In this document: piece after piece, positions 11,033-22,687 of the stretch
Numbering within the stretch: position 1 is the first letter of the stretch
Layout of the letters: every line of letters starts with the position of its first letter
The notes under the pieces: model-generated
What the model was told of the DNA's origin: nothing
Databases searched by the model: none
Seen by the model: only the letters and a program-made list of their open reading frames with translations
Assembly: GCF_001677475.2 (NCBI RefSeq)
Contig: NZ_CP015229.1
Length of the DNA stretch: 64,000 nucleotides
From: Escherichia coli
GTDB taxonomy: Bacteria; Pseudomonadota; Gammaproteobacteria; Enterobacterales; Enterobacteriaceae
Direction: 5' to 3' (one strand)
Made by a program: the position numbers and the translations under genes

Positions 11033-11812
11033 ATGGAAATCAGTCTGTTGCAGGCATTCGCGTTGGGCATTATCGCCTTTATCGCTGGCCTGGATATGTT
11101 TAACGGCCTAACCCATATGCACCGCCCGGTGGTCCTCGGCCCGTTGGTCGGGCTGGTACTTGGCGATCTGCATACCGGTATTTTAACCGGCGGTACGCTG
11201 GAACTGGTGTGGATGGGGCTGGCCCCGCTGGCAGGCGCACAGCCGCCTAACGTGATTATCGGTACTATCGTCGGCACGGCGTTTGCCATTACTACCGGCG
11301 TGAAACCCGATGTCGCGGTCGGTGTCGCCGTACCTTTCGCTGTCGCAGTACAGATGGGGATTACCTTCCTGTTCTCGGTGATGTCTGGCGTAATGTCCCG
11401 CTGCGACCGGATGGCGGAGAACGCCGATACACGCGGCATTGAACGCGTGAACTATCTGGCACTGCTGGCACTCGGCACTTTCTATTTTCTCTGCGCTTTC
11501 CTGCCTATCTACTTCGGCGCAGAACATGCCAAAACCATCATTGATGTCCTACCGCAACGATTAATCGACGGCCTCGGCGTCGCGGGCGGCATCATGCCAG
11601 CAATCGGTTTTGCCGTACTGCTGAAAATCATGATGAAAAACGTCTACATCCCCTACTTCATCCTGGGCTTTGTTGCCGCAGCCTGGCTCAAGTTACCGGT
11701 GCTGGCTATTGCTGCCGCCGCGCTGGCGATGGCGCTGATCGACCTGCTGCGTAAATCTCCTGAACCGACTCAACCTGCGGCACAGAAAGAGGAATTTGAA
11801 GATGGCATCTAA
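11033..11812 (+). CDS. agaW: PTS N-acetylgalactosamine-specific IIC component, full length (259 aa)
   Basis: 259 aa membrane ORF paralogous to agaC; intact here, whereas I recall it truncated in K-12. Confidence 0.88.
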   Translation: MEISLLQAFALGIIAFIAGLDMFNGLTHMHRPVVLGPLVGLVLGDLHTGILTGGTLELVWMGLAPLAGAQPPNVIIGTIVGTAFAITTGVKPDVAVGVAVPFAVAVQMGITFLFSVMSGVMSRCDRMAENADTRGIERVNYLALLALGTFYFLCAFLPIYFGAEHAKTIIDVLPQRLIDGLGVAGGIMPAIGFAVLLKIMMKNVYIPYFILGFVAAAWLKLPVLAIAAAALAMALIDLLRKSPEPTQPAAQKEEFEDGI

Positions 11813-12680
11813 TCAAACCACCCTGCCGAACGTCAGTGAAAACGAAGAAACACTGCTGACAGGCGTCAATGAAAACGTGTATGAAGATCAGAGCATTGGC
11901 GCAGAGCTGACGAAAAAAGATATCAACCGCGTCGCCTGGCGTTCCATGCTGTTACAAGCGTCTTTTAACTACGAGCGTATGCAGGCTTCCGGCTGGTTGT
12001 ACGGTCTGCTGCCTGCTCTGAAAAAGATCCACACTAATAAACGCGACCTGGCGCGCGCCATGAAGGGGCATATGGGTTTCTTCAATACCCATCCGTTTCT
12101 GGTGACGTTTGTTATCGGCATTATCCTTGCGATGGAGCGTTCTAAGCAGGACGTTAACAGTATTCAGAGCACCAAAATTGCCGTCGGTGCGCCGCTCGGC
12201 GGGATTGGCGATGCGATGTTCTGGCTAACGCTACTGCCGATTTGTGGCGGGATAGGCGCAAGCCTCGCGCTACAAGGCTCTATTCTTGGCGCAGTCGTCT
12301 TTATTGTGCTGTTCAACGTGGTACACCTGGGGCTGCGTTTTGGTCTGGCGCATTATGCTTACCGCATGGGCGTGGCGGCGATTCCACTCATTAAAGCGAA
12401 TACCAAAAAAGTCGGCCATGCTGCGTCAATCGTTGGGATGACGGTAATCGGCGCGCTGGTGGCAACCTATGTTCGTTTAAGCACCACGCTGGAAATCACC
12501 GCTGGCGACGCAGTGGTTAAGTTACAGGCTGATGTTATCGACAAACTGATGCCTGCCTTCTTACCGCTGGTCTACACCCTGACCATGTTCTGGCTGGTAC
12601 GCCGCGGCTGGAGTCCGCTGCGCCTGATTGCAGTTACCGTGGTACTCGGCATCGTCGGTAAATTCTGTCATTTCCTTTAA
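11796..12680 (+). CDS. agaE: PTS N-acetylgalactosamine-specific IID component
   Basis: 294 aa ORF paralogous to agaD (KKDINRVAWRSMLLQASFNYERMQA); overlaps the agaW 3' end; start may be the second ATG at 11802. Confidence 0.85.
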   Translation: MKMASNQTTLPNVSENEETLLTGVNENVYEDQSIGAELTKKDINRVAWRSMLLQASFNYERMQASGWLYGLLPALKKIHTNKRDLARAMKGHMGFFNTHPFLVTFVIGIILAMERSKQDVNSIQSTKIAVGAPLGGIGDAMFWLTLLPICGGIGASLALQGSILGAVVFIVLFNVVHLGLRFGLAHYAYRMGVAAIPLIKANTKKVGHAASIVGMTVIGALVATYVRLSTTLEITAGDAVVKLQADVIDKLMPAFLPLVYTLTMFWLVRRGWSPLRLIAVTVVLGIVGKFCHFL

Positions 12681-12697
12681 ATACAATGAGGTATTAG

Positions 12698-13132
12698 ATG
12701 TTAAGTATTATTTTGACAGGGCATGGCGGATTTGCCAGCGGCATGGAAAAAGCAATGAAGCAAATCCTCGGCGAGCAATCGCAGTTTATCGCCATCGATT
12801 TTCCGGAAACCTCAAGCACCGCGCTGCTTACATCGCAGCTTGAAGAGGCCATCGCCCAACTGGATTGTGAAGACGGCATTGTTTTTCTGACGGATTTGCT
12901 GGGCGGCACGCCGTTTCGCGTAGCTTCAACGCTGGCGATGCAAAAACCGGGCTGTGAAGTGATCACCGGCACCAATTTGCAACTGCTACTGGAGATGGTG
13001 CTGGAGCGCGAAGGGTTAAGCGGTGAAGAGTTCCGTGTGCAGGCGCTTGAGTGTGGACACCGTGGGCTGACCAGTCTGGTAGATGAGTTAGGCCGCTGCC
13101 ATGAAGAATGTCCGGTCGAGGAAGGAATATGA
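12698..13132 (+). CDS. agaF: PTS IIA component (mannose family), 144 aa
   Basis: 144 aa ORF MLSIILTGHGGFASGMEKA; stop TGA overlaps the agaA ATG (ATGA at 13129-13132). Confidence 0.88.
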   Translation: MLSIILTGHGGFASGMEKAMKQILGEQSQFIAIDFPETSSTALLTSQLEEAIAQLDCEDGIVFLTDLLGGTPFRVASTLAMQKPGCEVITGTNLQLLLEMVLEREGLSGEEFRVQALECGHRGLTSLVDELGRCHEECPVEEGI

Positions 13133-14262
13133 CACCCGTTTTGCGCGCCAGAAGGCTGCTGACTGAAGAGGGATGGCTCGATGACCATCAGTTGCGTATT
13201 GCTGACGGTGTAATCGCAGCAATCGAACCGATTCCAGTGGGCGTGACTGAACGCGATGCGGAACTGCTCTGCCCCGCTTACATCGACACCCATGTACACG
13301 GTGGTGCGGGCGTTGATGTAATGGATGACGCGCCGGATGTGCTCGACAAGCTGGCAATGCACAAAGCACGCGAAGGTGTCGGCAGTTGGTTACCGACCAC
13401 CGTAACCGCGCCGCTTAATACCATTCATGCGGCGCTGGAACGTATTGCTCAACGTTGCCAACGCGGCGGACCTGGTGCGCAAGTGCTGGGGAGTTATCTC
13501 GAAGGACCGTACTTCACGCCGCAGAATAAAGGTGCGCATCCGCCGGAGCTGTTCCGCGAGCTGGAAATTGCCGAGCTGGATCAATTGATTGCCGTTTCTC
13601 AGCACACCTTGCGCGTGGTGGCGCTGGCACCGGAAAAAGAAGGGGCATTGCAGGCCATCCGCCATCTTAAACAGCAAAACGTACGGGTGATGCTGGGGCA
13701 TAGCGCGGCGACCTGGCAACAAACCCGTGCCGCGTTTGACGCTGGTGCCGACGGCCTGGTGCATTGCTATAACGGGATGACAGGTTTACATCACCGCGAA
13801 CCGGGAATGGTTGGCGCGGGATTAACGGACAAGCGCGCCTGGCTGGAACTGATAGCCGATGGTCATCATGTGCATCCGGCGGCGATGTCGCTGTGTTGTT
13901 GCTGTGCGAAAGAGAGAATCGTGCTCATCACCGACGCGATGCAGGCAGCAGGGATGCCGGATGGTCGCTATACGTTATGTGGTGAAGAAGTGCAGATGCA
14001 CGGTGGCGTTGTCCGTACCGCGTCCGGTGGGCTGGCGGGCAGTACGCTGTCTGTCGATGCGGCAGTGCGCAACATGGTCGAGTTGACGGGCGTAACGCCT
14101 GCGGAAGCCATCCATATGGCGTCGCTGCATCCGGCGCGTATGCTGGGTGTTGATGATGTTCTGGGATCGCTTAAACCGGGCAAACGCGCCAGCGTCGTTG
14201 CGCTGGATAGCGGGCTGCATGTGCAACAAATCTGGATTCAGGGTCAATTAGCTTCGTTTTGA
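13129..14262 (+). CDS. agaA: N-acetylgalactosamine-6-phosphate deacetylase, intact (377 aa)
   Basis: NagA-family amidohydrolase; start placed at the ATG preceded by gaggaagg SD (MTPVLRARRLL); full length here, whereas it is a pseudogene in K-12 as I recall. Confidence 0.88.
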   Translation: MTPVLRARRLLTEEGWLDDHQLRIADGVIAAIEPIPVGVTERDAELLCPAYIDTHVHGGAGVDVMDDAPDVLDKLAMHKAREGVGSWLPTTVTAPLNTIHAALERIAQRCQRGGPGAQVLGSYLEGPYFTPQNKGAHPPELFRELEIAELDQLIAVSQHTLRVVALAPEKEGALQAIRHLKQQNVRVMLGHSAATWQQTRAAFDAGADGLVHCYNGMTGLHHREPGMVGAGLTDKRAWLELIADGHHVHPAAMSLCCCCAKERIVLITDAMQAAGMPDGRYTLCGEEVQMHGGVVRTASGGLAGSTLSVDAAVRNMVELTGVTPAEAIHMASLHPARMLGVDDVLGSLKPGKRASVVALDSGLHVQQIWIQGQLASF

Positions 14263-14439
14263 TGGTTTGCTCCTTTATTGGGCCTTCACTTCCCCCGTAA
14301 GGCCTTTCTTTTTCTTTCGTTGTGCTCTGTGCAGGGTATCGGATGCGACGCTGACACATCTTCTTTGACCTACGGTACGCCGCATCCGGCAATCGGTGAA
14401 CATAGCGACGTCATCACGCAATCCTTTAATCTTCCCTTG

Positions 14440-14600
14440 TCTTTTCTTTCAACGATCACAAATTTCGTTTTATTTCCTTTTCCTCCATTGATCTTTCAGT
14501 TTCTTTTCTATAGATTTTGATCAACGAAATGTATCACCAAGTGAAACGAAACGAAAGGTAAGCGAAAGCGACAACGCCCGACGTCAAGTTCATCAGACTA
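14440..14600. promoter_or_regulatory. agaS promoter with AgaR operator-like repeats
   Basis: gtgaaacgaaacgaaaggtaagcgaaagcg and tttcgttttatttcc: the same repeated TTTCGTTT/GAAACG motif as the agaR-kbaZ region. Confidence 0.6.
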
Positions 14601-14611
14601 AGGATTGAGTT

Positions 14612-15766
14612 ATGCCAGAAAATTACACCCCTGCTGCTGCCGCAACCGGTACATGGACTGAAGAAGAGATCCGCCATCAGCCTCGCGCATGGATCCGTTC
14701 ACTCACCAACATCGACGCGCTACGTTCCGCGCTCAATAACTTCCTTGAACCGTTACTGCGCAAAGAGAATCTGCGGGTAATCCTGACCGGAGCCGGAACC
14801 TCGGCATTTATCGGTGACATCATCGCGCCGTGGCTCGCCAGCCATACCGGTAAAAACTTCAGCGCCGTACCGACCACCGATCTGGTCACCAATCCGATGG
14901 ACTACCTGAATCCAGCTCATCCACTGCTGTTGATCTCCTTCGGTCGATCCGGCAACAGCCCGGAAAGCGTCGCCGCCGTGGAACTGGCAAATCAATTTGT
15001 ACCCGAGTGCTATCACCTGCCGATCACCTGCAACGAAGCGGGCGCTCTTTACCAAAACGCGATCAACAGCGACAACGCGTTTGCCCTACTGATGCCCGCA
15101 GAAACGCACGATCGCGGCTTTGCGATGACCAGCAGCATTACCACCATGATGGCCAGCTGCCTCGCGGTTTTCGCACCTGAAACGATCAACAGCCAGAGCT
15201 TCCGCGACGTGGCGGATCGTTGCCAGGCGATCCTAACCTCACTGGGCGATTTCAGCGAAGGTGTGTTTGGTTACGCACCGTGGAAACGGATCGTTTATCT
15301 CGGCAGCGGTGGCTTACAGGGCGCAGCACGCGAGTCGGCGCTGAAAGTACTGGAACTGACGGCGGGTAAACTGGCGGCCTTTTATGATTCCCCGACCGGA
15401 TTCCGTCATGGACCAAAATCGCTGGTCGATAACGAAACGCTGGTGGTGGTATTTGTCTCCAGCCACCCTTACACCCGTCAGTATGATCTTGATCTGCTGG
15501 CTGAACTTCGCCGCGATAACCAGGCGATGCGCGTAATCGCTATCGCCGCGGAAAGCAACGACGTTATTACCGCCGGTCCACATATCATCCTGCCGCCGTC
15601 CCGTCACTTTATCGACGTTGAGCAGGCATTTTGCTTCCTGATGTACGCCCAGACGTTTGCACTGATGCAATCGCTGCACATGGGCAATACGCCGGATACC
15701 CCATCAGCCAGCGGCACCGTTAACCGCGTGGTGCAAGGCGTAATCATTCATCCGTGGCAGGCATAA
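14612..15766 (+). CDS. agaS: SIS-domain galactosamine-6-phosphate deaminase/isomerase, 384 aa
   Basis: 384 aa ORF, GlmS-C-terminal-like SIS domains. Confidence 0.9.
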   Translation: MPENYTPAAAATGTWTEEEIRHQPRAWIRSLTNIDALRSALNNFLEPLLRKENLRVILTGAGTSAFIGDIIAPWLASHTGKNFSAVPTTDLVTNPMDYLNPAHPLLLISFGRSGNSPESVAAVELANQFVPECYHLPITCNEAGALYQNAINSDNAFALLMPAETHDRGFAMTSSITTMMASCLAVFAPETINSQSFRDVADRCQAILTSLGDFSEGVFGYAPWKRIVYLGSGGLQGAARESALKVLELTAGKLAAFYDSPTGFRHGPKSLVDNETLVVVFVSSHPYTRQYDLDLLAELRRDNQAMRVIAIAAESNDVITAGPHIILPPSRHFIDVEQAFCFLMYAQTFALMQSLHMGNTPDTPSASGTVNRVVQGVIIHPWQA

Positions 15767-16639
<873 letters not shown>

Positions 16640-16805
16640 TCATTAGTTTTTTATGATTTATCCCAATGTACTTCCCGATTAATATCGGGGAGTGCCTTAA
16701 TGGAAAAGGAGATGACTAAACCTTAATAAATACATCAGTACAATATCGCAACAATAATATATTTAAAAAAATTATATTATTCAACTTTATGGTGAGGATT
16801 ACACA

Positions 16806-17282
16806 ATGAGCAGTCCAAATATTCTCTTAACCCGTATTGATAACCGTCTGGTTCATGGCCAGGTTGGCGTGACCTGGACATCCACCATCGGTGCAAATCT
16901 GCTGGTAGTCGTGGATGATGTTGTCGCTAACGATGATATTCAACAGAAATTAATGGGTATTACCGCGGAAACCTACGGCTTTGGCATTCGTTTCTTTACT
17001 ATCGAAAAAACCATTAACGTCATCGGCAAAGCTGCACCACACCAGAAGATCTTCCTGATTTGCCGTACGCCACAAACGGTACGTAAATTGGTAGAAGGTG
17101 GCATTGACCTGAAAGATGTCAACGTCGGCAATATGCATTTCTCGGAAGGGAAAAAGCAAATCAGCAGTAAAGTTTATGTCGATGACCAGGATCTCACGGA
17201 CTTACGTTTTATTAAACAACGTGGTGTGAATGTTTTCATTCAGGACGTCCCTGGCGATCAAAAAGAACAAATCCCTGACTAA
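16806..17282 (+). CDS. agaB: PTS galactosamine-specific IIB component, 158 aa
   Basis: MSSPNILLTRIDNRLVHGQ; 158 aa. Confidence 0.92.
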   Translation: MSSPNILLTRIDNRLVHGQVGVTWTSTIGANLLVVVDDVVANDDIQQKLMGITAETYGFGIRFFTIEKTINVIGKAAPHQKIFLICRTPQTVRKLVEGGIDLKDVNVGNMHFSEGKKQISSKVYVDDQDLTDLRFIKQRGVNVFIQDVPGDQKEQIPD

Positions 17283-17320
17283 ATCTAAAATCACCTTAAT
17301 ATTAGTTTGAGGTAATAAAA

Positions 17321-18124
17321 ATGCATGAAATAACCCTACTTCAGGGATTATCCCTGGCGGCGTTAGTTTTCGTTCTGGGGATTGATTTTTGGCTGGAAGC
17401 CTTATTTTTATTCCGCCCGATAATCGTTTGTACCCTAACTGGCGCTATTCTCGGTGATATTCAGACTGGCTTAATTACCGGTGGTCTGACAGAGTTGGCT
17501 TTCGCCGGATTAACCCCTGCAGGTGGTGTTCAGCCGCCCAACCCGATTATGGCGGGTCTGATGACCACCGTCATTGCATGGTCTACGGGCGTTGATGCCA
17601 AAACAGCAATTGGTCTTGGCCTGCCGTTTAGTTTGTTAATGCAGTACGTCATTCTGTTCTTCTATTCCGCTTTCTCATTATTTATGACCAAAGCCGATAA
17701 ATGCGCGAAAGAGGCGGATACGGCAGCGTTTTCCCGGCTTAACTGGACAACGATGCTCATCGTCGCTTCAGCGTATGCGGTGATTGCTTTCCTCTGTACT
17801 TACCTGGCACAAGGGGCGATGCAGGCGCTGGTGAAAGCGATGCCCGCCTGGTTGACCCACGGCTTTGAAGTGGCTGGCGGTATTCTGCCTGCCGTTGGTT
17901 TTGGCTTGCTGCTGCGCGTAATGTTCAAAGCGCAATATATCCCTTACCTGATCGCCGGTTTCCTGTTTGTTTGCTACATCCAGGTCAGCAACCTGTTGCC
18001 GGTTGCCGTACTGGGTGCAGGCTTTGCGGTGTATGAGTTTTTCAATGCGAAATCCCGGCAGCAAGCGCAACCGCAGCCCGTTGCCAGTAAAAATGAAGAA
18101 GAGGACTACAGCAATGGGATCTGA
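17321..18124 (+). CDS. agaC: PTS galactosamine-specific IIC component, 267 aa
   Basis: 267 aa membrane ORF; overlaps the agaD start by 11 nt. Confidence 0.92.
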   Translation: MHEITLLQGLSLAALVFVLGIDFWLEALFLFRPIIVCTLTGAILGDIQTGLITGGLTELAFAGLTPAGGVQPPNPIMAGLMTTVIAWSTGVDAKTAIGLGLPFSLLMQYVILFFYSAFSLFMTKADKCAKEADTAAFSRLNWTTMLIVASAYAVIAFLCTYLAQGAMQALVKAMPAWLTHGFEVAGGILPAVGFGLLLRVMFKAQYIPYLIAGFLFVCYIQVSNLLPVAVLGAGFAVYEFFNAKSRQQAQPQPVASKNEEEDYSNGI

Positions 18125-18905
18125 AATCAGTAAAAAAGATATCACCCGTCTGGGCTTTCGTTCGTCGCTGCTGCAAGCGAGCTTTAACTACGAAAGGATG
18201 CAGGCGGGCGGTTTTACCTGGGCGATGTTGCCGATCCTGAAAAAGATTTATAAGGATGACAAACCGGGCCTAAGCGCGGCGATGAAAGATAACCTCGAAT
18301 TTATTAATACCCACCCAAATCTCGTCGGATTCCTGATGGGGTTATTAATTTCGATGGAAGAAAAAGGAGAAAACCGCGACACCATTAAAGGCCTCAAAGT
18401 GGCACTGTTTGGCCCAATCGCCGGGATTGGCGATGCGATTTTCTGGTTTACTTTGTTGCCGATTATGGCGGGAATTTGCTCATCATTTGCCAGCCAGGGA
18501 AACCTGCTGGGGCCGATTCTATTTTTCGCCGTTTACCTGCTTATCTTTTTCCTGCGCGTCGGCTGGACCCACGTCGGTTATTCAGTCGGCGTGAAGGCGA
18601 TCGATAAAGTGCGAGAGAACTCGCAGATGATTGCCCGTTCGGCAACCATCCTCGGGATCACGGTAATCGGCGGGCTGATCGCTTCGTATGTGCATATTAA
18701 CGTGGTGACATCGTTTGCCATCGACAGTACCCACAGCGTCGCGCTGCAGCAGGATTTCTTCGATAAAGTCTTCCCGAACATTTTACCGATGGCCTACACC
18801 CTGCTGATGTATTACTTCCTGCGGGTGAAAAAAGCGCATCCGGTGCTGTTAATCGGCGTGACGTTTGTGCTCTCTATTGTTTGTTCCGCATTCGGCATTT
18901 TGTAA
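18114..18905 (+). CDS. agaD: PTS galactosamine-specific IID component, 263 aa
   Basis: Start at internal ATG (MGSEISKKDITRLGFRSSLLQASFNYERMQA), giving 263 aa. Confidence 0.9.
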   Translation: MGSEISKKDITRLGFRSSLLQASFNYERMQAGGFTWAMLPILKKIYKDDKPGLSAAMKDNLEFINTHPNLVGFLMGLLISMEEKGENRDTIKGLKVALFGPIAGIGDAIFWFTLLPIMAGICSSFASQGNLLGPILFFAVYLLIFFLRVGWTHVGYSVGVKAIDKVRENSQMIARSATILGITVIGGLIASYVHINVVTSFAIDSTHSVALQQDFFDKVFPNILPMAYTLLMYYFLRVKKAHPVLLIGVTFVLSIVCSAFGIL

Positions 18906-19673
18906 ATGGAACGAGGCACTGCTTCTGGCGGTGCCTCTTTACTTAAGGAATTTCATCCTGTGCAAACCCTTCAGCAAGTTGAAAACTATACGGCGTTAAG
19001 TGAACGTGCCAGCGAATATTTATTGGCCGTGATCCGTAGCAAACCGGATGCCGTGATTTGCCTGGCGACCGGAGCCACGCCATTACTGACGTATCATTAT
19101 CTGGTAGAAAAAATCCACCAGCAGCAGGTTGATGTCAGCCAACTAACCTTCGTCAAGCTCGACGAATGGGTGGATCTGCCATTAACTATGCCTGGCACCT
19201 GCGAAACTTTCCTGCAACAGCATATCGTGCAGCCGCTGGGGCTACGTGAAGACCAGCTCATCAGCTTTCGCTCCGAAGAGATAAATGAGACAGAGTGCGA
19301 ACGGGTAACGAACCTGATTGCGCGCAAAGGCGGTCTGGATTTATGCGTTCTCGGATTGGGGAAAAACGGTCATCTTGGGCTGAACGAACCGGGAGAAAAC
19401 CTGCAACCGACCTGCCATATCAGTCAACTTGATGCCAGAACACAGCAACATGAGATGTTAAAAACCGCGGGCCGTCCCGTGACTCGTGGGATCACCTTAG
19501 GCCTGAAGGATATTCTCAATGCCCGCGAAGTTTTGTTACTGGTGACTGGCGAAGGAAAGCAGGATGCGACAGAACGTTTTCTCACGGCTAAAGTCTCCAC
19601 CGCTATCCCGGCTTCGTTTTTATGGCTGCATAACTATTTCACATGCATGATTGATGAGATGTGTCGTCGTTAA
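18906..19673 (+). CDS. agaI: Galactosamine-6-phosphate deaminase/isomerase (NagB family), 255 aa
   Basis: ATG immediately follows the agaD TAA (TAAATG at 18903-18908); NagB-like fold. Confidence 0.88.
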   Translation: MERGTASGGASLLKEFHPVQTLQQVENYTALSERASEYLLAVIRSKPDAVICLATGATPLLTYHYLVEKIHQQQVDVSQLTFVKLDEWVDLPLTMPGTCETFLQQHIVQPLGLREDQLISFRSEEINETECERVTNLIARKGGLDLCVLGLGKNGHLGLNEPGENLQPTCHISQLDARTQQHEMLKTAGRPVTRGITLGLKDILNAREVLLLVTGEGKQDATERFLTAKVSTAIPASFLWLHNYFTCMIDEMCRR

Positions 19674-19676
19674 CTC

Positions 19677-19720
19677 GCCTGCTACAGGCGTTGCAACGCT
19701 ATTCCTGCTGCGACGCCTGT
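19677..19720. terminator. Nested palindromes between the convergent agaI and rsmI stops (putative bidirectional terminator)
   Basis: cgcctg-cta-caggcg, gcgttgcaacgc and outer acaggcgt ... acgcctgt inverted repeats; no strong T-run. Confidence 0.5.
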
Positions 19721-19722
19721 AA

Positions 19723-20586
19723 TCACTCTCCCTGCTGCTCCAGTGCATACTTATACAGCGCATTTTTCTTCACGCCGTGAATTTCTGCGGCCAGCGCCGC
19801 CGCTTTTTTCAGCGGCAGTTCTGCCTGTAGCAGCGCCAGCGTGCGCAGGGCATCGGCGGGTAAGTCTTCTTCCTGTGCTTTATGGCCTTCGACAATCAGT
19901 ACCATTTCGCCTTTGCGACGGTTTTCATCTTCTTTGACCCACGCCAGCAGCTCGCCAACGGGCGCGCCGTGAATGGTTTCCCAGGTTTTGGTCAGCTCAC
20001 GCGCCAGAACGACGTAGCGGGATTCGCCTAATACCGCAACGATATCTTCCAGGCTATCTAACAGACGGTGGGTAGATTCATAAAAAATCAGCGTGCGCGG
20101 CTCCGCTTCAATGGCTTTTAGCGCATCACGGCGGCCTTTTGATTTGGCAGGTAAAAAGCCTTCATAACAAAAACGATCGGATGGTAAACCCGCGGCGCTT
20201 AACGCAGTGATAGCAGCACACGGCCCGGGTAGCGGCACCACGAGAATCCCCGCTTCACGGCAGGTACGCACCAGATGGTAGCCAGGATCGTTAATTAGCG
20301 GCGTTCCGGCATCGGAAACCAGCGCAATGTTTTGCCCCTCTTGCAGCTTCGCCAGCAGCGTTTCGGCTTTTTGTTGTTCGTTATGGTCGTGCAGCGCAAA
20401 CAACCGAGCATTAATCCCAAAATGTTGCAGCAATAAACCGGTGTGACGCGTATCCTCGGCGGCAATCAGATCAACGGCCTGTAATACCTCCAACGCACGC
20501 TGGGTGATATCCGCCAGATTGCCGATTGGCGTCGGTACAATGTAAAGCTGGCCCTGAGAATTATCCGCCGATTGGTGTTGTTTCAT
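19723..20586 (-). CDS. rsmI: 16S rRNA C1402 2'-O-methyltransferase
   Basis: 287 aa [31 protein letters not shown], tetrapyrrole-methylase-like fold. Confidence 0.92.
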
Positions 20587-20650
20587 TGTGTCGTCCGTAT
20601 TGCCGATTTAATATTGAGCATTGCGTAAAAAAAATATCACTGGATACATT

Positions 20651-22687
20651 ATGGTACCCTCAACATTTTCTCGTTTGAAAGCCGCGCGTTGTCTGCCTGT
20701 TGTTCTGGCAGCCCTGATTTTCGCCGGTTGTGGCACCCATACTCCCGATCAGTCCACTGCTTATATGCAGGGCACGGCGCAGGCTGATTCTGCCTTTTAC
20801 CTGCAACAGATGCAGCAAAGTTCTGATGATACCAGGATCAACTGGCAATTACTCGCCATTCGTGCACTGGTGAAAGAAGGTAAAACCGGACAGGCGATGG
20901 AGTTGTTTAACCAACTACCGCAAGAACTGAACGATTCTCAGCGTCGCGAGAAAACACTGCTGGCGGCAGAGATTAAACTGGCGCAGAAAGATTTTGCTGG
21001 CGCGCAAAACTTGCTGGCGAAAATCACACCTGCAGATTTAGAACAAAACCAGCAAGCGCGTTACTGGCAGGCAAAAATCGATGCCAGCCAGGGGCGTCCT
21101 TCCATTGATTTACTGCGCGCGTTAATTGCTCAGGAACCGCTGCTCGGCGCGAAAGAAAAGCAGCAGAATATTGACGCCACCTGGCAGGCGCTCTCCTCCA
21201 TGACTCAGGAACAGGCGAATACGCTGGTGATCAATGCCGACGAAAATATTCTGCAAGGCTGGCTGGATCTGCAGCGCATCTGGTTTGATAACCGTAACGA
21301 TCCCGACATGATGAAAGCCGGGATCGCCGACTGGCAGAAACGTTATCCGAACAACCCGGGCGCGAAAATGCTGCCAACGCAGTTGGTTAACGTAAAAGCG
21401 TTTAAACCCGCATCGACCAACAAAATCGCCCTGCTGTTGCCACTGAATGGCCAGGCAGCGGTATTTGGTCGCACTATTCAGCAAGGCTTTGAAGCGGCGA
21501 AAAATATCGGCACTCAGCCAGTGGCGGCTCAGGTAGCTGCCGCACCTGCCGCAGACGTAGCAGAACAACCTCAGCCGCAAACCGTGGATGGCGTTGCCAG
21601 CCCGGCACAAGCCTCGGTTAGCGATCTGACCGGTGAACAACCTGCGGCCCAGCCGGTGCCTGTAAGCGCCCCGGCGACAAGCACCGCAGCAGTAAGCGCA
21701 CCCGCAAATCCATCTGCAGAACTGAAAATCTACGATACCTCATCACAACCACTTAGTCAGATCTTAAGCCAGGTTCAGCAGGATGGCGCGAGTATTGTGG
21801 TCGGTCCGTTGCTGAAAAATAACGTTGAAGAGTTGCTGAAGAGCAACACCCCGCTGAACGTGCTGGCACTGAACCAGCCGGAGAATATCGAAAACCGCGT
21901 CAATATTTGTTACTTCGCGCTTTCACCTGAAGACGAAGCGCGCGATGCAGCGCGTCATATTCGTGACCAGGGTAAACAAGCGCCGCTGGTGCTGATCCCA
22001 CGCAGTTCATTGGGCGATCGCGTAGCCAATGCGTTTGCGCAAGAGTGGCAGAAACTGGGCGGCGGCACCGTTCTGCAACAAAAATTTGGTTCCACCAGCG
22101 AATTACGCGCGGGTGTTAACGGCGGTTCTGGTATTGCTTTAACGGGTAGCCCGATTACTCCCAGAGCGGCAACCGACTCCGGCATGACGACCAACAATCC
22201 AACGCTGCAAACCACGCCAACCGATGACCAGTTCACCAATAATGGCGGTCGTGTCGATGCGGTCTACATTGTGGCAACGCCGGGTGAAATCGCTTTTATC
22301 AAACCGATGATCGCCATGCGTAACGGTAGCCAGAGCGGTGCAACGCTGTACGCCAGCTCCCGCAGTGCGCAAGGGACCGCTGGCCCGGATTTCCGACTGG
22401 AGATGGAAGGTTTGCAGTACAGCGAAATCCCGATGCTGGCAGGCGGTAATCTGCCCTTAATGCAGCAGGCGCTCAGCGCGGTGAACAACGATTATTCGCT
22501 GGCTCGCATGTATGCGATGGGCGTTGATGCCTGGTCGTTGGCAAATCATTTCTCACAAATGCGCCAGGTTCAGGGTTTTGAAATCAACGGTAATACCGGA
22601 AGCCTGACGGCAAACCCGGATTGCGTGATTAACAGGAAGTTATCATGGCTACAGTACCAACAAGGTCAGGTAGTCCCCGCCAGTTAA
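20651..22687 (+). CDS. lpoA: Outer-membrane lipoprotein activator of PBP1A, 678 aa
   Basis: Start at internal ATG ([28 protein letters not shown]: signal peptide with lipobox); 678 aa. Confidence 0.92.

Follow-up and report, generated by a model that had tools for sequence, protein, structure and literature searches.

An undeleted aga/gam cluster with open agaW, agaE, agaF and agaA in an Escherichia coli genome, with predicted growth on GalNAc and GalN

Escherichia coli K-12 has lost part of the aga/gam cluster, and the locus described here raises the question of whether the window (the whole 64,000-nucleotide stretch of DNA that we analysed) carries the undeleted form and, if so, what this predicts for growth on N-acetylgalactosamine (GalNAc) and GalN. 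In the window, at positions 11033–14262 on the plus strand, we found that agaW, agaE, agaF and agaA are all open, with zero internal stops both in the list of open reading frames and on re-translation.

11033–11812, plus strand: agaW, IIC of the GalNAc PTS; 259 aa, full length, ATG start
11802–12680, plus strand: agaE, IID of the GalNAc PTS; 292 aa counted from the ATG
12698–13132, plus strand: agaF, 144 aa; the single IIA, predicted to be common to the GalNAc and GalN PTS
13129–14262, plus strand: agaA, predicted GalNAc-6-phosphate deacetylase (NagA family), 377 aa

Re-translation confirmed the lengths that the initial annotation had given for agaW (259 aa), agaF (144 aa) and agaA (377 aa). 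The mechanical agaA frame begins at 13108 and would encode 384 aa; counted from the ATG at 13129, the protein has 377 aa, matching the annotation elsewhere. For agaE, the claim of a full-length frame holds, but the length of 294 aa counts from the TTG of the mechanical frame (11796–12680). The ATG at 11802 yields two residues fewer, and we take 292 aa as the length because the AgaE model has 292 positions and the protein is annotated at that length in three other strains. The genes are tightly coupled, as had been claimed: agaW and agaE overlap by 11 nt (11802–11812), and the agaA ATG and the agaF TGA share the ATGA at 13129–13132.

To the family models, AgaW aligns over positions 1–249 of 249 of the AgaW equivalog NF040757 (410.8 bits, cutoff 300), AgaE over 1–292 of 292 of the AgaE equivalog NF040760 (617.6 bits, cutoff 500) and AgaF over 1–144 of 144 of the AgaF equivalog NF040761 (219 bits, cutoff 130), and each protein thus belongs to its family. 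The phospho-acceptor histidine of AgaF is conserved: His9 falls opposite His10, the phosphorylated residue of IIA-Man (1vrc/1pdo; ManX His10). The AgaW protein is identical in VCSW7, O157:H7 PA20 and GF43 (WP_000406214.1), AgaE is identical in the three other strains compared (WP_001295548.1), and AgaF is identical in O157:H7 PA20 and GF43.

AgaA matches TIGR00221 nagA over model positions 6–379 of 380 (289.9 bits, cutoff 225.65), which places it in that family, and solved NagA structures can be aligned to it from end to end. Its DTHVHGG, LEGPY, LGHS, VHCYNGM and ITDAM motifs are the same motifs as in Bacillus subtilis NagA (2vhl), and comparison with that structure indicates that the amidohydrolase metal and catalytic motifs (HxH, EGP, GHS, H-x-YN and TDA) are kept. 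Deacetylase activity of E. coli AgaA on GalNAc-6-P is on record in literature as cited in PMC3668189, and the AgaA of the window is a predicted GalNAc-6-P deacetylase. Compared with O157:H7, AgaA has five substitutions, of which two, P3 and E104, are found in none of the three strains compared. Over agaW-agaE-agaF-agaA as a whole, codon differences from the O157:H7 genome amount to 80 synonymous and 5 non-synonymous, which indicates purifying selection. Opposite agaW-agaE-agaF-agaA, the longest three open reading frames encode 222, 141 and 124 aa; none matches Pfam, and for this reason we take them as chance frames and not as antisense genes.

To locate what differs in K-12, we compared the window with MG1655 (NC_000913.3) by blastn and base by base. 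The flanks are collinear (b3131–b3141; 97.5–98.3% identity), and agaR, kbaZ, agaV, agaS, kbaY, agaBCD and agaI are present in both. In contrast, K-12 MG1655 is without 2305 bp that correspond to approximately 11409–13713 of the window, and its junction lies at approximately position 3281076.

11409–13713, no strand assigned: the stretch missing from K-12, 2305 bp, bounded by an imperfect 10-bp direct repeat

The flanking repeat copies are CGCTGCGACC (11399–11408) and CGCGGCGACC (13704–13713); GCGACC is common to both, so the K-12 breakpoint is ambiguous within these six letters. In K-12, agaW ends after codon 125, agaE and agaF are gone and agaA lacks its first 195 codons. What is left are two pseudogenes, 402 nt of agaW and 504 nt of agaA; in the RefSeq annotation, the agaA pseudogene comprises the final 167 codons. 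Loss of the 2305 bp between the two short direct repeats would account for the absence of agaE and agaF in full and of agaW and agaA in part, and this deletion explains why K-12 does not grow on GalNAc or GalN. The window has the full 2305 bp and does not have the K-12-type agaW'-'agaA junction. The initial annotation had described the four genes as truncated or fused in K-12; they are indeed not intact there, but the wording does not fit, as agaE and agaF are wholly absent and agaW and agaA are pseudogenes. Its reading would have fallen with a frameshift or premature stop in the window, or with intact copies in K-12, and we found neither. PMC3668189 and PMC9628945 report the loss of 2.3 kb in K-12 as well as the intact cluster of E. 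coli C.

The nine other genes of the cluster are intact as well.

8188–8997, minus strand: agaR, intact; annotated agaR in syntenic loci; 269/269 identical to VCSW7 and 268/269 to K-12
9246–10526, plus strand: kbaZ (agaZ), tagatose-bisphosphate aldolase subunit, 426 aa, GTG start, intact; 423/426 identical to K-12
10549–11022, plus strand: agaV, IIB of the GalNAc PTS, 157 aa, intact; 319.9 bits to the equivalog NF008508 over positions 1–157 of 157; 156/157 identical to K-12
14612–15766, plus strand: agaS, GalN-6-phosphate deaminase/isomerase (role from PMC3668189), 384 aa, intact; 377/384 identical to K-12
15779–16639, plus strand: kbaY (agaY), tagatose-1,6-bisphosphate aldolase, 286 aa, intact; 285/286 identical to K-12
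16806–17282, plus strand: agaB, IIB of the GalN PTS, intact; 157/158 identical to K-12
17321–18124, plus strand: agaC, IIC of the GalN PTS, intact; 267/267 identical to K-12
18114–18905, plus strand: agaD, IID of the GalN PTS, intact; 262/263 identical to K-12
18906–19673, plus strand: agaI, 255 aa, intact

Thus all 13 aga/gam genes are present in order, without frameshift or premature stop, as in an E. coli C-type cluster, and the gene order is that of annotated syntenic loci in other strains. The C-terminal approximately 14 residues of AgaI are unlike those of K-12 AgaI (251 aa) because homology to K-12 stops at window position 19630. As described in PMC3668189 after Brinkkötter et al. 2000, E. 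coli C is Aga+ Gam+ and has 13 intact genes that agree with those of the window in identity, order and orientation; agaC and agaI are uninterrupted in both. We found no difference of substance from E. coli C in a comparison made through its published description and through other intact strains; O157:H7 PA20, VCSW7 and GF43 were aligned in its place.

In O157:H7 (EDL933/Sakai type; here PA20), the order from agaR to agaI is the same and AgaW, AgaE and AgaF are identical to those of the window. However, O157:H7 has an amber codon (TAG) at agaC codon 8 and at agaI codon 72 and is Gam-negative, whereas the window has CAG at both (PMC3668189). O157:H7 is a lineage shown to be Aga+; the spinach-outbreak O157:H7 is Aga-negative and has Ser91 in AgaF (PMC3668189), where the window has Gly. 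All three published O157:H7 inactivating sites (AgaF G91S, agaC Q8amber and agaI Q72amber) are therefore wild-type here. The yra fimbrial genes that follow agaI are kept in O157:H7 but not in the window.

The genes are packed in two units. kbaZ-agaV-agaW-agaE-agaF-agaA form one tightly packed unit that encodes IIB, IIC, IID and IIA of a mannose-family GalNAc PTS together with the GalNAc-6-phosphate deacetylase, and agaR lies upstream of kbaZ on the opposite strand. The second unit, agaS-kbaY-agaB-agaC-agaD-agaI, encodes the deaminase, the aldolase and the GalN IIB/IIC/IID set, and the cluster contains no separate IIA gene for this set. The claim of two complete PTS transporters thus stands only through the shared AgaF, as the cluster has one IIA gene and not two. 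It also depends on agaV, the needed IIB, which is intact and lies just outside the span from 11033 to 14262 given for the dual PTS.

The control regions are nearly identical to those mapped in K-12.

8998–9245, no strand assigned: agaR-kbaZ divergent control region with repeated CTTTC/TTTCGTTT motifs
14280–14318, plus strand: terminator-like hairpin (GGGCCUU...AAGGCCU) and T-rich run, directly past agaA
14319–14611, no strand assigned: remainder of the agaA-agaS spacer, with a REP-like palindromic segment and then a CTTTC-repeat region upstream of agaS

The agaR-kbaZ spacer differs from K-12 at 5 of 248 positions, and its CTTTC-type repeats are all invariant. In K-12, AgaR operators and the PR and PZ promoters have been mapped in this spacer (Ray and Larson 2004, as cited in PMC9628945), and from this literature we assign putative AgaR operators and PR/PZ promoters to the window. 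The spacers upstream of kbaZ and agaS are 94–99% conserved with K-12 and VCSW7 and retain the CTTTC repeats; by sequence comparison, predicted AgaR-controlled promoter regions are present there, as in a complete E. coli C-type regulon. Between agaA and agaS, alignment columns of approximately 100–170 (REP-like) are unlike K-12 and match VCSW7, and columns 171–350, adjoining agaS, are nearly invariant. In K-12, the conserved CTTTC region before agaS contains the PS promoter together with AgaR operator sequence. Folding of the hairpin after agaA gave an MFE of –10.2 kcal/mol (z –2.73; 0 of 200 shuffles as good), and the hairpin, a putative terminator, is identical in K-12 and VCSW7. A consensus terminator scan missed it, probably because its loop is longer than the 8-nt limit of the scan. 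A promoter scan gave 6 promoter-like sites as compared to 10.4 in shuffles, with no informative terminator call, and an Rfam scan of 7000–21000 at gathering thresholds returned zero structured RNA matches.

We reconstruct how these genes would act together from publications on E. coli C and O157:H7. GalNAc would enter as GalNAc-6-P and be deacetylated by AgaA or NagA, AgaS would deaminate and isomerise the product to tagatose-6-P, and tagatose-6-P would be phosphorylated and then cleaved by KbaY/KbaZ, with AgaF serving as IIA for both the GalNAc and the GalN transporters. With this route and a shared AgaF, the strain should grow on both sugars. We therefore read the window as a wild-type, undeleted aga/gam regulon, with growth on GalNAc and GalN expected (probability approximately 0.93); growth of the source strain on both sugars is a sound prediction from the gene content. 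The full catabolic pathway that had been claimed is present with its genes intact, but not all of them are needed: growth on GalNAc/GalN does not require agaA or agaI, and the deaminase is AgaS, not AgaI (Hu et al. 2013, PMC3668189). NagA stands in for AgaA, so that agaA is dispensable with nagA present (PMC3668189). Because of this, it is chiefly agaS, kbaY/kbaZ and the transporters that carry the pathway. Outside the window lie the general PTS proteins EI and HPr, nagA and the kinase step for tagatose-6-P.

To place the intact state among E. coli, we counted the stretch in complete genomes. It is present at full length in 4,929 of 5,426 (91%), a count that rests on coverage, with frame intactness taken from coverage and from the annotations of 27 sampled rows. 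The K-12 junction is found in 371 of the 5,426; among the matches listed (60 of 371), nearly all are K-12 laboratory derivatives, and four K-12-junction matches are at 95–99% identity. The contrast with K-12 drawn in the initial annotation is correct, but the specialness that it implied is not, and we reject the intact state as unusual given that 91% of complete genomes share it. The window is the common wild-type E. coli state and K-12 is the oddity, which makes K-12 a poor reference for the aga locus. Like most E. coli, the strain is predicted from its cluster to use GalNAc and GalN, amino sugars that derive from mucin. The significance is small beyond correct annotation: the K-12 deletion and the intact cluster are already known and have been genetically dissected since 2000.

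Intact open reading frames are no guarantee of function, because in some O157:H7 isolates the single missense G91S in AgaF suffices for the loss of GalNAc use (PMC3668189). The cluster could in the same way be intact yet phenotypically silent, through a missense, regulatory or elsewhere-in-genome defect, with no growth on GalNAc/GalN; the two AgaA substitutions absent from the three comparison strains and the residue differences from K-12 in KbaZ (3) and AgaS (7) would be compatible with this. We consider it improbable, however, as Aga+ O157:H7-type genomes encode the same AgaW, AgaE and AgaF proteins, AgaF has Gly91, the control regions are conserved and the synonymous excess argues for continued selection. 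There is a slimmer chance that the source strain belongs to a poorly sampled lineage, a possibility raised by the finding that identity to the window does not exceed approximately 99% in any complete RefSeq E. coli genome, and that its aga alleles (AgaA P3/E104 and the AgaI C-terminus) differ in activity; our sequence analyses of the window gave no evidence of altered activity relative to the studied alleles. Slimmest of all is the chance that the transporter mainly serves another sugar such as glucose: in E. coli ATCC 8739 with ptsG deleted, the Aga PTS carries glucose as a result of agaR mutations, but this uptake occurs only after de-repression in the ptsG-deleted background and does not reach the speed of the dedicated system (PMC9628945), and clustering with a GalNAc-6-P deacetylase, a deaminase and a tagatose-bisphosphate aldolase fits amino-sugar catabolism. 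The undeleted aga/gam regulon thus remains our reading of the window. Its transporter has the same mannose-family IIA/IIB/IIC/IID four-domain architecture as ManXYZ; however, IIA and IIB are separate proteins in the window and fused in ManX, and ManXYZ differs from the Aga PTS in substrate and regulation. Compared with the mannose models, the window proteins score under the cutoffs, whereas they score above those of the Aga models.

On the plus strand at 11033-14262, we found that four frames run without interruption, both in the ORF list and by direct translation, as the initial annotation had claimed:

agaW: 11033-11812, plus strand, ATG start, 259 aa
agaE: ATG at 11802, plus strand, 292 aa (ORF-list start, TTG at 11796, 294 aa)
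agaF: 12698-13132, plus strand, 144 aa
agaA: ATG at 13129, plus strand, 377 aa (ORF-list start at 13108, 384 aa)

The lengths it had given hold for agaW, agaF and agaA (377 aa is also the length of agaA in annotations of other strains). Its 294 aa for agaE is two residues too long because the 292 aa read from the ATG fill the AgaE model (1-292 of 292) and match the annotated AgaE length of three other strains. The claimed coupling of agaF and agaA is present as an ATGA overlap of stop and start, and agaW and agaE overlap by 11 nt. Apart from the small error in agaE, the observation on the four genes is confirmed. Antisense to them, the three longest ORFs had no Pfam match, and an Rfam scan of 7000-21000 matched no family.

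When we compared the four proteins and the neighboring AgaV with NCBIfam models at curated cutoffs, all were full-length and scored over the cutoff.

NCBIfam scores (model, bits, cutoff)
AgaW: AgaW equivalog, 410.8, 300
AgaE: AgaE equivalog, 617.6, 500
AgaF: AgaF equivalog, 219, 130
AgaV: GalNAc IIB equivalog, 319.9, 180
AgaA: nagA model, 289.9, 225.65

In an alignment with solved IIA-Man domains, His9 of AgaF corresponds to His10 of ManX, the phosphorylated residue. Solved NagA deacetylases align with the entire length of AgaA, in which the HxH, EGP, GHS, HxYN and TDA motifs are conserved.

MG1655 does not hold the four genes intact, in agreement with the claimed difference from K-12: its RefSeq record marks agaW (402 nt) and agaA (504 nt) as pseudogenes and contains neither agaE nor agaF. 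Alignment of the window to the MG1655 region by blastn gave two collinear blocks, 4332-11408 (98.3% identity) and 13704-19630 (97.5%), and base-by-base comparison located the deletion, with K-12 lacking 2305 bp that correspond to about 11409-13713. The deletion is flanked by an imperfect 10-bp direct repeat, CGCTGCGACC (11399-11408) and CGCGGCGACC (13704-13713), whose copies are identical at 9 of 10 positions with a perfect 6-bp core, GCGACC; endpoints in such a repeat are consistent with a microhomology-mediated deletion. In K-12, agaW is cut after codon 125, agaE and agaF are wholly gone, and agaA has lost its first 195 codons. Thus, the description "truncated or fused in K-12" understates the loss because agaE and agaF are removed completely.

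Among 5,426 complete E. coli genomes, the 3.2-kb stretch was matched in 5,316, of which 4,929 had 80% or more of it at a single location, and agaW, agaE, agaF and nagA (the pipeline name for agaA) are annotated in the 27 sampled full-length rows. The K-12 junction, searched with a 240-bp query across it, was matched in one piece in 371 genomes; among the 60 of these matches listed, nearly all are K-12 laboratory derivatives (MG1655, DH5alpha, C600, J53, DH1, NCM3722). Intact agaWEFA is the usual condition, and what K-12 shows is a lesion specific to its lineage.

The source is E. coli-like and has no near-identical relative among the 5,426 genomes. Its closest complete RefSeq E. coli genome has 98.4-99.0% identity to the window (tested at 1-24000 and 40000-64000); over the four genes the closest identity is 98.9%, and almost all genomes match at 95-99%. 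Because the best match changes along the window (the soil isolate VCSW7, GF43, Nissle-like strains), the comparison suggests a mosaic or under-sampled lineage.

Codon differences in the four genes number 80 synonymous and 5 non-synonymous against O157:H7 PA20 (all 5 in agaA; the AgaW, AgaE and AgaF proteins are identical), 30 and 6 against VCSW7, and 42 and 4 against GF43, a pattern typical of genes under purifying selection. Against VCSW7, kbaZ (9246-10526) has 35 nt differences (2.7%) and all of agaWEFA 36 (1.1%), an unevenness that hints at recombination breakpoints inside the cluster.

We found every one of the 13 cluster genes intact, agaR (8188-8997, minus strand) being the first and agaI (18906-19673) the last. 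For the nine that K-12 also has, protein identity lies between 98% and 100%, the AgaI C-terminus excepted. We looked in the window genes for the three O157:H7 inactivating point mutations (Hu et al., 2013; PMC3668189) and found none: AgaF residue 91 is Gly with no Gly91Ser change, and agaC codon 8 and agaI codon 72 are both CAG rather than amber. In the 248-position agaR-kbaZ spacer, 5 positions differ from K-12 and every CTTTC-type repeat is retained; the agaS-proximal half of the agaA-agaS spacer is likewise conserved. Directly 3' of agaA, at 14280-14318, is a hairpin followed by a T-rich run (MFE -10.2 kcal/mol, z -2.73). The agaA-agaS spacer also holds, at about 14335-14430, a REP-like palindromic segment (…GGATGCGACGCTGACAC…GCCGCATCCGGCA…) that is unlike the K-12 spacer in sequence and arrangement, but matches that of VCSW7. 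The gene sets of the claimed "two complete mannose-family PTS transporters" are intact; however, they are complete only in a limited sense because both use one IIA, AgaF.

Gene content, intactness, family membership, and conserved active-site residues and control regions were observed directly, and the interpretation of the cluster in the initial annotation is supported. From the genetics in the cited papers we infer the pathway itself: GalNAc would enter via AgaV, AgaW, AgaE and AgaF and GalN via AgaB, AgaC, AgaD and AgaF, followed by predicted deacetylation by AgaA or NagA, deamination and isomerization by AgaS and, after phosphorylation, cleavage by KbaY/KbaZ, with AgaR as the putative repressor of the regulon. 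The Aga- Gam- phenotype of K-12 has been attributed to a 2.3-kb deletion, credited to Brinkkötter et al. (2000); nagA makes agaA dispensable by substituting for it, and the deaminase step comes from agaS, not agaI (Hu et al., 2013; PMC3668189). The deletion is stated again in later work, in which an agaR mutation made the Aga PTS able to carry glucose (Kim et al., 2022; PMC9628945). Because these two papers cover it, the finding is already known in every respect, and the feature is ordinary.

At the flanks, the prlF-yhaV toxin-antitoxin pair (7334-8133; 111 and 154 aa, stop and start overlapping) adjoins agaR on its upstream side, as in K-12. The yraH-yraK fimbrial operon, which lies between agaI and rsmI (yraL) in K-12 and O157:H7, is absent in the window, where rsmI directly follows agaI (19631-19722, agaI end to rsmI end). 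K-12 homology stops at 19630, within agaI, so that the C-terminus of AgaI is not the K-12 one (…NYFTCMIDEMCRR, 255 aa, as compared to …SNFICLINT, 251 aa, in K-12). Among the 5,426 complete genomes, 1,821 share this yra-less agaI-rsmI junction.
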